NCBI GenBank assembly: GCA_964016885.1
Contig: OZ024751.1
Coordinates: forward strand, 36,022,001-36,086,000
Reading direction: 5' to 3'
From: Eledone cirrhosa
Taxonomy: Eukaryota
DNA: 64,000 nt
The notes below the pieces were generated by a model. The model ran no database searches, was not told the DNA's origin, and was given only the letters and a program-made list of their open reading frames with translations. Positions within the stretch are counted from its first letter, which is position 1; every line of letters begins with the position of its first letter. Shown one piece after another: positions 4,916 through 53,562 of this stretch. A program made the translations under genes and the position numbers.

Positions 4916-5091
4916 AACGAAGGAAATGTGGTAAGGAACCAGGTGGACCATAACGCACCAAAGTACTCAATACTTGAGGTAGTAGAGTGGGTAATAGGAA
5001 CCAGTAAGACCCCGACAGCTGAGCTCAAGCCGTTTCGAATTAGCCGTCGAAACGGCTTGAGCTCAGCTGTCGGGGTCTTACTGGTTCCTAT
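4916..5091 (-). mobile_element. Hairpin-plus-tail element, family H, copy 1
   Basis: Perfect 45-bp inverted repeat at 4994-5038/5047-5091 plus ~78-nt unpaired tail; homologous to 34251-34445, 53361-53562 and 45482-45579; embedded in (TA)n. Strand is inferred from the GAAAC-to-tail direction. Confidence 0.85.
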
Positions 5092-6210
5092 ATATATATA
5101 TATATATATATATATATATATACATATATATATATATATACATATATATATATATATACATATATATATATATATATATATATATATATATATATATATA
5201 TATATATATATATATATATATATACATATATATATATATACATATACATATATATATACATATACATATATATATATATATATACATATACATATATATA
5301 TATATATATATATATACATATATATATATATACATATATATATATATATATATATATATATATATATATATACATATATATATATATATACATATACATA
5401 TATATATACATATACATATATATATACATATATATATATACATATATATATATATATATACATATATATATATATACATATATATATATATATATATATA
5501 TACATATATATATATATACATATATATATATATATATACATATATATATATACATATATATAAATATATACATATATATATATACATATATATATATAGA
5601 TATATACATATATATACATATATATATATATATATACGTATATTATATATACATATATATATACATATACATATATACATATATATATATATACATATAC
5701 ATATATACATATATATATATACATATACATATATACATATATATATATATACATATATATATACATATATATATACATATATACATATATATATATACAT
5801 ATATATATATATATATACATATATATATACATATATATACATATATGTATACATATATATATATATACATATATATATATATACATATATATATATACAT
5901 ATATATATATATACATATATATATATATACTTATATATATATATACATATATATATATATACATATATATATACATATATATATATACATATATATATAC
6001 ATATATATATATATACATATATATATATATATATATATATATATATATATATATATATATATATATATATATATATATATATATATATATATATATATCT
6101 GTATATATATATGTTTATGTATGTTTGAATGTATATGTATATATATTCTATTACACACATATATATATATATATATATATATATATATATATATATATAT
6201 ATATACATAT
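5092..6210. repeat. (TA)n/TACA microsatellite
   Basis: Directly visible. Confidence 0.97.
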
Positions 6211-6734
6211 ATAATGTGTTTATACATACATAATATGTAAGTGTGTACATTAAGACACGATATGCTTCGTTGTATATATTCTTCCCTCGTGATGTCAATA
6301 GTAACCTTATTCAATAGCAATACCTAAAACTATTAACCCGACCTTGATTGGATTATTATATACACGGTGTAAAGCTTTTATGTCAGTATAAACCCCGTGT
6401 CATCGGTTGCCTTCCTGAAACCAACCATTGGAACGGATTCAGCAACACACACACACACACACACACACACACACACACATATATATATATATATATAATG
6501 TCCGTATAATGCTTGAACGTTCACATACACAAACATATATAAATATATATATATATATATATATAATTCAAAGGGGTATATATATATATATATATATATA
6601 TATATATATATATAATTCAAAGGGGTATATATACATATATATATATATATATAATTAGACATAGTCATAGATACATATTATCTAATGTTTCTTCGGATAT
6701 ATATATATACCGTATATATATATATATATATATA

Positions 6735-6925
6735 TAATTGTTTCTACTTTTGGCACAAGGCCAACAATTACCCAGTGCATTACTGGTACTTTATTTTATC
6801 GAGCCGTAAGGATGAAAGGCAAAGTTAACCTCGGCGGGATTTGAACTCAGATCATACAAGGGCCGTAACTCTATGCGACAAAGCATGACGTCCGACCCTC
6901 TACCGATACTGCCAATCCCCCGCCT
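6735..6925 (-). mobile_element. tRNA-derived SINE family A, full length
   Basis: Reverse complement of the family sequence, with A box TGGCAGTATCGG, B box GAGTTCAAATCC, central GCCTTTCATCCTTACGG..TCGATAAAATAAAGTACCAG and AACAATTA end. Confidence 0.93.
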
Positions 6926-7257
6926 TTATATATATATAATGTGTGTTTTATCTTACATGGAAACAGAAATATATGTATTTCACCATTGATATTAGAGATA
7001 ACCTTCTCTTCTATTTGATATGAGGTCGTTAAAGTCTGTCCCAAGTCCCAGGTTCATCATGTTGGAGCATATCACCGTTTCATTGGCATTAAGTGACAAA
7101 GGGGACAAAACCCACCCTTGGATTGGGCGGAGAATAAATACCTTCTTTCCTGCTGGATCGGATGTCAATCCATCATCATTTTAGCCCCCAGTTTTCACTG
7201 CTGGGATTAATGACTTTTTCCATTGAATTGACTGTTGTAACATTATATGAAGTATCA

Positions 7258-7443
7258 GTGGTTGATTGCCAGTATCGGTAGAGGAACGGACGCCATGCTT
7301 TGTCGCATAGAGTTACGGCCCTTGCCATTCTGAGTTCAAATCTCGCCGAGGTTAACTTTGCCTTTCATCCTTACAGGGGTCGATAACATAAAGTACCAGT
7401 AATGCACTGAGTAATTGCTGGCCTTGTGCCAAAAGTAGAAACA
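7258..7443 (+). mobile_element. SINE family A with 16-bp TSD
   Basis: Family match; TSD ATTATATGAAGTATCA at 7242-7257 and 7444-7459. Confidence 0.93.
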
Positions 7444-7448
7444 ATTAT

Positions 7449-7556
7449 ATGAAGTATCATCTTGTTCAAGGACAGAACACGCAGTTCAGACTGAGAATCG
7501 GAAATCAGCATCGTATGATTATTAGCTCAAGATATGAACCATTAGGCCTCGTGCCT
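7449..7556 (-). mobile_element. SINE family B, degenerate tRNA-like head, interrupted by the SINE A insertion
   Basis: Reverse complement resembles the 5' part of 46500-46782 and 62410-62738 (GGC.CG.GGC.TA.TGGTT...GTCCTTGAACAAGA). Confidence 0.6.
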
Positions 7557-50587: not shown

Positions 50588-50589
50588 TA

Positions 50590-50735
50590 AATAATTGTTT
50601 CTAATTTTGGCACAAGACCTGCAATTATCGCAGTGTATTACTGGTGCTTTATTTTATCGATCCCTTAAGGATGAAAGGCAAAGTTAACCTCTGCGGGATT
50701 TGAACTCAGACCATAAAGGGCCGTAACTCTTTGCT
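50590..50735 (-). mobile_element. SINE family A, 5'-truncated
   Basis: Family match. Confidence 0.88.
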
Positions 50736-51542
50736 ATAAGAAAACCTGCTCAATCCGAATGGAGGAGGAGATCTATGCTAAATGTCAGTTGAAACATTTA
50801 GATGCACGGTATAAATATTCTTGGAATACAATGTCACACATCTATCACATTGACGACAAGGTTATACAGCAAAATATAATTCTTATACTTTTGAAATGGA
50901 TTCTTATAAAATACAATTATCTATCTCTCATCGTAAAATAAAAATAATAGAAAAACTAAAAAAAAATTTTGAAATTCAATTCAATGAGTGAGATAAAAAA
51001 AATATTCAGAAAAATGGTGCAATGCCACATTTAAGTGATAAATCATTTTTATACTTCAACTGCTCTGAAATGTGTTAAATTATAAATATAGTTTTCGAAG
51101 TGTATTTCTGGTATTTTTTTCGTATTCTCAGAGGCAAAAGCGAAGAAAATCTAACACTTTATATTCTTCTGAGCGGCAAAGCAAGGAGAGATACAAGGAA
51201 AAACACCAGGTGTCTCCATCGGTTTAAATTTTTACACATGAATAACGGCATATTTACAGCATTTAGTTTCATTTATGTTTGGAAATGAAAAAAAAGGTTA
51301 TGTACTTTTCAAAATATTTTGAATTTTCTCACTTATGCAAGTCTGCAAATGCTTACAAATTCTCTACACGTCTTTATAAATGCAGATACGTGGAAATTTA
51401 GTTTCTTTAGAAAACCGAAATGAAAATTACGATCATAGAAACATGAGGATATACGCGTACAGAAAGATAAGCCCCAATACAAACACAAACACACATACAC
51501 TCTTTCTCTCTCTCTCTGTTATATATGTATATATGTATATAT

Positions 51543-51845
51543 ATTTAAATTGTTGGGATACAACAAGCAAATATTTTTGTAACTGATATAAAGCACTCAA
51601 CAAATAATTGGAGTAAAAATACGATATTAACAAATGGAAACTATGTTTATAAAACCATATTTATTTCATTATACATATTTCAAGGACACCAAGCTAACTT
51701 ATGGCGTGCTTTCATCAGATAAAATATAATATAGAGCAGTTTTATAAATAAATATTGACATACCCTTAAAGAATGCAACCATTACTGTTGGAAGCTCCCG
51801 GGAGCTTCCAACAGTAATGGTTGCATTCTTTAAGGGTATGTCAAT
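51543..51845 (-). mobile_element. Family P2 module: perfect 92-bp palindrome at the 5' end, HHR, tail ending at TA
   Basis: Palindrome 51754-51845 centred on CCC|GGG with no spacer; tail homologous to 40590-40735. Confidence 0.8.
51662..51726 (-). ncRNA. Hammerhead motif, C.C class
   Basis: Minus strand reads TATTTTAT-CTGATGA-A-AG-C-ACGCCA-loop-TGGTGT-C-CT-T-GAAA-T-atgt-A-TA-ATGAAATA. Confidence 0.78.
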
Positions 51846-52158
51846 GGAATACGCAACCATTTACACAGGTTAATTTAAGAATTAGCCGTTCAATTTATAG
51901 AACGATTGAATTGCTCATCGTTGAATCTGACGGAGAATCTATTCATTTTTTTCCCATGAAGAACAATTCTATGGCTCCAAGAGAGAATGTAGTGGTGGCG
52001 TATGTGTCAAAGACACAAAGAATCCGTATTGTATTTCGTATTCTTAAATCTGATTGAGTGAAGACATTCCAACTTCTTTTTCCTCATTTCAGTTTGGATG
52101 TCATGAAGGTGGATTACATTGCTATAACCCCATGGAGGATAGTGGTTACGTAAGGGAT

Positions 52159-52443
52159 ACTACTACTACTACTATTAATACTACTACTACTACTACTACT
52201 ACTACTACTACTACTACTACTACTACTACTACTACTACTACTACTACTACTACTACTACTACTACTAATAATAATAATAATAATAATACTAATAATAATA
52301 ACAATAATAATAATGATATTATGATAATGATAAAAATGACGATAATAATTAAAAATATTAACGCAAATAATAAAATAAATAAAACTAATGTTTTTAATGA
52401 TAATAATAATAATAATAATAATAATAATAATAATAATAATAAT
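52159..52443. repeat. (ACT)n and (AAT)n trinucleotide repeats
   Basis: Directly visible. Confidence 0.95.
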
Positions 52444-53360
52444 ATTAATAAGAATAATTACCTCAAGATTTTAGGAGATAATCAAGAGGGTGGTGTTAAT
52501 TAACTTCACTCAAAGAGACACCATCAATTGAAATCAATGGGTTCATCGTTAATGAAGATCAACAATTGTGATTTTCATTATGAAGGAAAAAAATCTTAAA
52601 TTTCAAAATTCCCTTTTCGGAAGTCGTTGTTGTTGTCTATTGACAATGTGAAGTGTATTTCCGTTAAAATCAAAGCAGTTTAGGCAGCCATCCATCACTG
52701 CCAAGGCTAGATAAAGGAGACGATAGTTTAGTCATATGTTGGCATAGAATTCCATAATTTTTCTGATTCATTTTAAGTAACTTCGAGTCAGGTTTTAGTA
52801 AATTTTAGAAATGTGAACTTCAACTTGTGTTATATCTTGCAGTAGTTGTAGAATATTTGTGGAGGGCTGAGGTTATATAAGTTGGAGGTAAAGATATACC
52901 TGTATTATCTAGTGTTTTCAGTTAGGGTTGACGTAGTATTGCATAGTATGTGTGGTGTTTTGTGGGAGATCGGCAGTTAACCACACATGACGGTAATCAA
53001 TGTGCATGTCGTTGATGTTGTCCAAGGCAAAAGTAGATGGCACTTGGAAGATTCACTCCCACACGGGACGCAAGACCAGCACAGGGCTAGCTTGCAGCTG
53101 TAACTCATTTTGTTTCAGCTGAGTACAATGCCAGGAAAAGGAATTATTGCATATCCCAAAGCAATATATATATATATATATATATATATATATAATCAAA
53201 TTTGATTAAATTGACAAATTAATATATAACTCCGTTCCTACACAACGACGGATAAGTTGCGTACGTAGAGTGCTTTCCTACAATTACATGACAGTTCACT
53301 AGACGGAATGACCAGTTCTATCCATTGATGAACAAAACTTAAATGAATATATATATATAT

Positions 53361-53562
53361 ATAGGAACAAGTATGACACCCGACGGCAGAGCTCAAGCCG
53401 TTTCGACGGTTAATTCTGGACGAGTCCAGAATTAGCCGTAGAAACGGCTTGAGCTCTGCTGTCGGGGTCATACTTGTTCCTATTACCCACTTTACTACCC
53501 TAAGTATTGAGTACTTTGGTGCGTTATGGTCCATCTGGTTCCTTACCACATTTCCTTCGTTA
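53361..53562 (+). mobile_element. Family H copy 3
   Basis: ~60-bp arms at 53361-53421/53424-53483 plus 79-nt tail; in (TA)n. Confidence 0.88.

Follow-up and report, generated by a model that had tools for sequence, protein, structure and literature searches.

The window analysed here is a stretch of 64,000 nt from Eledone cirrhosa (GCA_964016885.1, contig OZ024751.1, positions 36,022,001-36,086,000, forward strand), and it holds four close copies of a short element, family H, which an earlier note had singled out for substitutions that recur at matching positions in both arms of a hairpin. Only three of the copies are two-armed, and the single-armed copy 4 was absent from that note. Their parts are as follows, in window coordinates:

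4916..4993, minus strand: copy 1 tail of 78 nt, the 3' end of the element, next to (TA)n
4994..5038, minus strand: copy 1 tailed arm, bearing a 3'-half motif of the type I hammerhead
5039..5091, plus strand: 8-nt loop of copy 1 together with its inverted untailed arm (the arm itself at 5047-5091)
34252..34329, minus strand: copy 2 tail
34330..34386, minus strand: copy 2 tailed arm
34387..34445, plus strand: 2-nt loop of copy 2 together with its inverted untailed arm (the arm itself at 34389-34445), with two mismatches between the arms
45482..45578, plus strand: copy 4, with a full tail and 19 nt of arm; an inverted arm was not found
53361..53421, minus strand: copy 3 inverted untailed arm, with 3 mismatches and 1 indel relative to its partner
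53424..53483, plus strand: copy 3 tailed arm, with a hammerhead 3' half (GAAA, helix III, GUC) at 53441-53463, assigned at the level of motifs
53484..53561, plus strand: copy 3 tail, next to (TA)n

The order of parts in family H is (TA)n, an inverted arm without tail, an arm with tail and again (TA)n; one strand carries a type I hammerhead motif of which the 3' half is represented. Runs of (TA)n flank copies 1-3 on both sides and copy 4 on its tail side, and copy 1 sits inside a 5-kb TA array. An inverted, 5'-truncated copy adjoins the 5' end of the element in three of the four close copies, and the 78-nt tail is one-ended with a fixed boundary in all three two-armed copies. The earlier note had correctly described that the untailed arm stops at an identical base beside (TA)n in the three hairpins, and that the loops differ among them (8, 2 and 2 nt). 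The three junctions all fall within ~20 nt of each other, and in copy 1 the untailed side contains ~10 nt of element sequence beyond the point where the tailed side stops. The inner ends vary and the outer ones are constant, which is the pattern of 5' truncation. The tail is less uniform than the constant one previously described, given that 6, 4 and 6 differences separate the 78-nt tails of copies 1-3, and the range becomes 4-8 when copy 4 is counted as well. Neither a long copy of family H, nor a full-length parent, nor a family H ORF was found within the 64-kb window.

The GAAA-helix III-GUC motif is present in seven of seven arms, always on the tail-ward strand and never (0 of 7) on the other one, and its 6-bp equivalent appeared in 10 of 20,000 shuffles of one arm. 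The CUGANGA half of the hammerhead is absent from all family H copies. With the Rfam hammerhead models no match was obtained for copy 3, 39039 or 21946, and the sole match among the regions tested (3590-3634, 31.7 bits) lies under the cut-off of 34. Copy 4 starts 1 nt past the predicted cut site of the ribozyme.

The existence of mirrored substitutions is borne out: each of the three hairpins mirrors its C/G/A and A/G/T variants, and copy 3 its A/T variant as well. Across the 45 columns common to all six arms of copies 1-3, seven positions are variable, comprising three that are symmetric in every copy, one CpG column and three single-arm changes. The CpG column, CGAC[A/G]GC, is indeed mirrored in copies 1 and 2, but it is unsymmetric in copy 3, which the earlier note had left out. 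Among the 15 ways to pair the arms, the true one ranks alone at the top, with 4 differences versus at least 10. Six mirrored changes were observed, five without the CpG column; when an equal number of changes was placed independently, at least five mirrored changes arose in 0 of 60,000 simulations (mean 0.21), and when placement was limited to eight mutable columns this was seen in 0.15% of runs. Chance is therefore excluded as their source. The arms are nevertheless incompletely homogenised, as copies 1, 2 and 3 have 0, 2 and 4 unmirrored differences (0/45, 2/57, and 3 mismatches plus 1 indel in 61, respectively). The variants are also not copy-specific, since copy 4 agrees with copy 3 at the two symmetric columns present in it and at one column of the tail, and because of this sharing the mirrored bases look like variants of source lineages. 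A tree of the arms, a check that had been suggested, contained no well-supported branch and was too weak for use.

Relatives of family H and elements of the same layout lie elsewhere in the window:

9892..9937, minus strand: diverged relative of the H tail (78-80%), inside a short insert bounded by (TA)n runs
19832..19885, plus strand: diverged family H relative (~81%), a lone arm flanked by (TA)n runs, with helix III retained and the loop altered
34153..34227, plus strand: 38k-family remnant, a partnerless 27-nt inverted arm fused directly to part of the tail
38134..39287, plus strand: 38k element, a different family with the family H layout and the reference case, consisting of an inverted untailed arm (38134-38295), a GIY-YIG ORF remnant (to 38831), a hammerhead-like motif (39039), a tailed arm (39070-39231) and a tail of 56 nt
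44581..44626, minus strand: second 38k-family remnant, a partnerless 34-nt inverted arm fused to the final 22 nt of the tail

Family H and the 38k element have no sequence match. In one of the 38k-family remnants the inverted arm stops at the arm-end base of the 38k element. The family H layout was found in five of seven other, hand-picked hairpins, one of the five carrying the GIY-YIG endonuclease remnant. Loops measure at most 9 nt in six of nine arm pairs, with one loop of 0 nt, and seven of the nine pairs contain 1-8 mismatches, the perfect arms being those of copy 1 and of the palindrome at 51754. This palindrome (51754-51845) contributed to the loop count but not to the layout count, as no (TA)n end was seen, and the hairpin at 40520-40582 was excluded from the loop count, as it resembles helix II of a hammerhead-like motif and not an arm pair. 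In most elements the arms end in 2-4 nt of TA-like sequence that is continuous with the flanking (TA)n.

The GIY-YIG domain of the 38k element is recognized by Pfam (E 6.6e-5), and it alone exceeded a curated cut-off in a six-frame Pfam scan of 150 of the 280 non-repetitive segments. A HMMER search with this domain returned 1789 matches, and a word-index search against longer proteins returned nothing. A YxDD motif lies upstream of the matched region in 8 of 15 relatives of at least 500 aa, while the Pfam RT domain was found in 0 of 10 relatives scanned, so their assignment as RT proteins is based on motifs. The family H sense frame at 53422-53559 had no match among longer proteins, neither of two family H frames matched any of 150 GIY-YIG relatives, and an exact 31-nt H pattern had 0 matches in bacterial and archaeal genomes, as expected. 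Coding constraint on family H was considered because the four symmetric columns, read by hand, are mostly synonymous in one frame; it was rejected, as the tail changes in the same frame are all non-synonymous or stop, and a 3/4 match in codon position is common by chance.

Insertions of Penelope-like elements (PLEs) are known to combine an inverted 5'-truncated copy, a one-ended tail, a bias to (TA)n and pseudo-LTR hammerheads (PMC8557442, PMC3846280, PMC4209133). Judged by its sequence features, family H probably consists of Penelope-like remnants in which both arms come from one source; we infer the PLE identity, the single-source templating and the insertion route alike. As in family H, the inverted copy is untailed and the tail one-ended in PLEs with a C-terminal GIY-YIG, such as Penelope/Poseidon, Neptune, Nematis and Hydra (PMC8557442, PMC3846280), and variable 5' truncation, a microsatellite target, a hammerhead motif near the 3' end and palindromic inverted junctions are shared as well. 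Family H differs in that its copies are just 100-200 nt long, its tail is 78 nt versus the published 30-40 nt, no GIY-YIG, ORF or parent was found for it in the window, and its helix III has 5-6 bp, whereas helix III has 1-2 bp or is absent in most metazoan PLE hammerheads (PMC4209133). Family H itself has no protein link to PLEs, and its hammerhead is only half present and undetected by Rfam, which speaks against a PLE identity. Another comparison is provided by non-LTR retrozymes, which are likewise (bioRxiv 10.64898/2026.07.22.740005) short, non-coding, equipped with a type I hammerhead and derived from PLE pseudo-LTRs. These form head-to-tail tandem arrays with complete ribozymes, in contrast to the dispersed head-to-head pairs with half a ribozyme in family H, and an assignment of family H to them was rejected in the absence of tandem units with a complete hammerhead.

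In vitro, the protein of the Anolis Poseidon element PAc cuts and extends both strands of an AT-rich target and starts reverse transcription at two sites, one on either side of the tail (PMC11167929), features with which family H agrees. PAc starts without homology to the target, unlike the window elements with their mostly TA-like arm ends. The origin of the inverted copies and of the tail of PLEs is stated to be open (PMC8557442), and the main text of the PAc study, as far as available, leaves the inverted copies unexplained.

According to the mechanism proposed here, the H copies would be very short, 5'-truncated insertions of a PLE, or of a non-autonomous derivative, into (TA)n. After nicking the (TA)n site, a PLE RT/GIY-YIG protein would carry out two rounds of reverse transcription on the 3' end of a single source transcript, one starting at the tail end and the other 78 nt further in, at the arm/tail boundary. 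Head-to-head joining of the resulting short cDNAs, one per target strand, would leave an untailed inverted arm and a tailed arm. Since both arms would be copied from one source, source variants would be mirrored and post-insertion mutations unmirrored. The match of the arms is most likely akin to that of the ends of an LTR retrotransposon, with both arms coming from the same source at insertion; paired LTRs are two repeats from one template that share its variants and later diverge, although they are direct repeats, unlike the inverted arms of family H. LINE-1 twin priming, in which two primings on one RNA lead to an inversion, differs in that LINE-1 inversions barely overlap, whereas the family H products overlap nearly completely after starting close to the same 3' end.

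Two primings are preferred as the route with moderate confidence, and the serious though less probable contender is a fold-back that implies the same PLE identity and equally yields mirrored variants. Here one cDNA would fold on itself, possibly where the parent ribozyme has a palindromic helix II, and self-copy, later deletions would reshape the loop, and the untailed end would be set by an endonuclease or a fixed stop. This is the snap-back synthesis put forward in the earlier note and the self-priming idea proposed for PLEs in 2013, when palindromes at inverted junctions were reported and self-priming was inferred from them (PMC3846280). Fold-back predicts the short loops of six of the nine arm pairs, including that of 0 nt, and these would not be expected if two cDNAs were truncated independently; it also agrees with the clustering of the three H junctions, and copies 1 and 2 can each be seen as a hairpin like copy 3 that has lost its middle, with 1-2 nt of microhomology. 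However, the inverted arms of the remnants at 34153 and 44581 lack a template on the tailed side, and the untailed side of copy 1 has sequence missing from the tailed side, so that additional later deletions are needed, and the in vitro reaction has two RT starts with extension of both strands (PMC11167929). Because of the two partnerless inverted arms, two primings fit slightly better. The earlier note appears right in proposing one template for both arms at insertion, and its hint at a hammerhead-bearing parent fits, but such arms are the outcome expected for a known class, with its inverted 5' copy and tail, and calls for no new homogenising process.

The remaining explanations are all improbable to different degrees. 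Palindromes can undergo conversion, and the identity of the copy 1 arms across 45 nt would agree with arm-to-arm gene conversion after insertion; yet this idea of the earlier note is unlikely, because unmirrored differences persist in copies 2 and 3, and the mirrored bases of copy 3 must predate or be independent of its hairpin, since the single-armed copy 4 has them. A foldback/MITE-type DNA transposon or a hairpin (Helitron-like) element moving as one unit, suggested by short, non-coding copies with inverted arms and TA targets, is slightly less likely still: the inverted repeats do not lie at both termini, one end bears the 78-nt unpaired tail, the outer ends are fixed and the inner ones variable, the half-hammerhead is strand-specific, and whole-unit copying would not renew mirrored changes. 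Selection for a 45-60 bp RNA stem, as a small-RNA precursor or editing substrate, had also been put forward, and each copy is predicted to fold as a single long stem (whole-element energies of -105 to -121 kcal/mol), as would any inverted duplication. It is very unlikely, given that neither the loop nor the stem has a constant length, copy 3 retains changes that break its stem, some copies have only one arm and the layout is common to unrelated families; among the best 150 of 488 Rfam matches, those near H copies are far under their gathering scores, including the top microRNA scores over copy 2 (38 and 37 bits versus 69 and 80). Least credible is a sequencing or assembly artefact from fold-back chimeric reads, for which the perfect arms of copy 1 and the 51754 palindrome and the position of copy 1 in a TA array might speak, but which is at odds with the mismatches in seven of the nine arm pairs and with untailed arms that end on the same element base at three loci.

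To conclude, family H is an ordinary feature of a window that is filled by PLE stubs of this layout, and such hairpins are liable to be mistaken for microRNA precursors or MITEs. A literature search, with most subscription papers outside its scope, found no prior use of arm haplotypes for PLE integration. It is conceivable, and we propose it only tentatively, that arm pairs in the genome are a readable record of the PLE integration step, with two primings on one transcript per insertion. If so, the three different source haplotypes, each of them mirrored, would point to one RNA as the template of both cDNAs, as opposed to the two RNAs of a dimer, the partnerless arms would show independent priming, and the start of copy 4 near the predicted cut would be in vivo evidence for self-cleaved RNA as template. 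Mirrored and unmirrored variants separate source-derived from later changes and thereby date insertions, and their genome-wide counts could discriminate two primings from fold-back. Scoring thousands of copies would then settle whether PLEs use twin priming or self-priming, with no need for new experiments, which gives family H a modest value as a genomic test of the PLE mechanism.

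The mirrored symmetry between the arms of family H, a group of short hairpin elements in which an inverted untailed arm, a tailed arm and a 78-nt tail lie between (TA)n runs, is real. The three two-armed hairpins were found where the earlier note had placed them, and a fourth copy came to light:

4916-5091, copy 1, two-armed hairpin
34252-34445, copy 2, two-armed hairpin
53361-53561, copy 3, two-armed hairpin
45482-45578, copy 4, 19 nt of arm and the full tail, no inverted arm found

Among the 45 columns common to the six arms, 3 are mirrored in all three copies, a further one, a CpG, shows mirroring in copies 1 and 2 and not in 3, and three positions are changed in a single arm. 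The symmetry is considered real because the true arm pairing gives the fewest differences of the 15 possible (4, vs at least 10 for the others), and simulations of independent mutation rarely reach at least 5 mirrored changes (0 of 60,000, or 0.15% when only 8 columns are mutable), compared with 5-6 observed. In the arm tree, the arms of copy 1 group together, as do those of copy 3, in a tree with no well-supported branch.

The variants had been described as copy-specific, the arms as homogenised and the tail as constant, none of which was borne out. Copy 4 carries the base of copy 3 at both mirrored columns that it covers, so that the mirrored bases of copy 3, at least, are variants of a lineage, and it also shares copy 3's base at one tail column. 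Between the two arms, copy 1 has 0 differences in 45 positions, copy 2 has 2 in 57 and copy 3 has 4 in 61, and the tails of the four copies show 4-8 differences.

LTRs are identical at insertion. Were both arms of a hairpin likewise copied from one source during one insertion, source variants would appear in both arms and later mutations in one, and the mirrored and single-arm changes of family H form the pattern expected from such an origin. A homogenising process is not needed to account for the likeness of the arms; arm-to-arm conversion is unlikely since unmirrored differences persist and unrelated families have the same layout, and selection for the stem is unlikely because stem-breaking differences persist and, again, the layout is not confined to one family.

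Seven other hairpins were hand-picked from a self-comparison of the window, and 5 of them repeat the order of (TA)n, inverted untailed arm, tailed arm and (TA)n. The five have tails of 41-109 nt, and the last four are unrelated in sequence:

38134-39287, 38k element, truncated Penelope-like retrotransposon (PLE) with a GIY-YIG remnant, a hammerhead-like motif at 39039, an inverted arm and a 56-nt tail
31567-32026, arm-plus-tail hairpin in (TA)n, hammerhead-core pattern at 31833
24291-24976, arm-plus-tail hairpin in (TA)n
21649-22097, arm-plus-tail hairpin in (TA)n, hammerhead-core pattern at 21946
33735-33986, arm-plus-tail hairpin in (TA)n

The GIY-YIG domain present in the 38k element is frameshifted near 38420-38450 and has 1789 protein relatives; of the 15 listed relatives that reach 500 aa, 8 have a YxDD motif upstream of the matched region, and Pfam named no RT domain in the 10 relatives scanned. 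The 39039 motif has no Rfam match, and a hammerhead-like motif 82% similar to it lies at 17489-17526 on the minus strand. A 27-codon frame starting with the ATG at 39206 runs across arm and tail, as in the PLE pseudo-LTRs described in PMC3846280. Published PLE traits include 5' truncation, an inverted 5'-truncated copy, a 30-40 nt tail at one end, hammerheads and microsatellite targets (PMC8557442, PMC3846280), and family H agrees with those that can be tested, its tail being about twice the published length and its hammerhead a candidate half. It does not match the 38k element in sequence, and a protein search with one of its reading frames gave no match; its anatomy suggests that it is a PLE. 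Its hairpins are real and explained, and probably belong to an already-known kind of element.

Type I hammerheads have a characteristic core sequence, and the tail-ending strand of each family H arm carries GAAA, a 5-6 bp helix and GUC, a putative 3' half of such a ribozyme. This call stays at the motif level because the 5' half is missing from family H and Rfam gave no hammerhead match for copy 3. The layout used for comparison follows PMC4209133. The half motif occurs on the tail-ward strand in 7 of 7 arms and never on the opposite one (0 of 7), its 6-bp equivalent arose in 10 of 20,000 shuffles of one arm, and a relative at 19832, one of the seven arms, retains the helix with a changed loop. 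Copy 4 starts 1 nt past the predicted ribozyme cut, a single case noticed after the fact; in PMC11167929, no RNA-seq ends fell on the cut site in the element studied there. Other features of the window are as follows:

3590-3634, complete type I hammerhead scoring 31.7 bits in Rfam (RF00163), slightly under the cut-off of 34, and separated from a TA array by ~45 nt
51754-51845, perfect palindrome of 92 nt lacking both loop and mismatches, (TA)n end not seen within 125 nt
22111-22253, 33286-33382, 40815-40905, small family lying in (TA)n; in two of its copies a shared left part meets a right part of differing length, and the joint shows a short overlap
40530-40750, 51520-51732, 9482-9566, 25060-25150, family in which hammerhead-core patterns go with long and variable helix II regions
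33640-33695, GAAAC then a short palindrome whose end adjoins (TA)n, perhaps a minimal hammerhead that has degenerated

The window is AT-rich (GC ~28%) with abundant microsatellites, and a Pfam scan that covered 150 of its 280 non-repetitive frames picked up no host gene. A degenerate (TA)n array of 5.3 kb (868-6236) contains copy 1, the 3590 hammerhead and a partial SINE-like copy. The SINE-like family (~190 nt, 85-98% identical, more than 10 copies) presumably resembles cephalopod SINEs, and comprises partial copies and the following:

6732-6925, 7260-7453, 35633-35832, 39610-39827, 41454-41647, 56850-57041, 58862-59046, SINE-like copies

Twin priming is known from LINE-1, and two primings are somewhat favoured as the source of the paired arms. 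PMC11167929 describes a PLE protein that cuts both strands of its target, extends them, and begins reverse transcription at two sites bracketing the tail. Two remnants of the 38k family (34153-34227 and 44581-44626) have an inverted arm joined directly to a tail piece without a partner arm, and the untailed side of copy 1 extends ~10 nt beyond the tailed side; both would need later deletions if the second arm were made by fold-back of the tailed cDNA. Fold-back is the less probable reading. Several points count against two primings: loops are at most 9 nt in 6 of 9 arm pairs, all family H junctions fall within ~20 nt, central deletions in a copy-3-like hairpin could account for copies 1 and 2, and PMC3846280 (2013) inferred self-priming from such palindromes. 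Both processes may operate.

On whether mirrored arm variants or twin priming had been invoked before for PLEs, a literature search that covered few subscription papers listed nothing relevant beyond PMC3846280. The boldest reading, less likely than not, is that the arm pairs record a PLE integration step, with two primings on one transcript. Genome-wide counts of arm haplotypes and junction geometry would serve as a test of the PLE mechanism.
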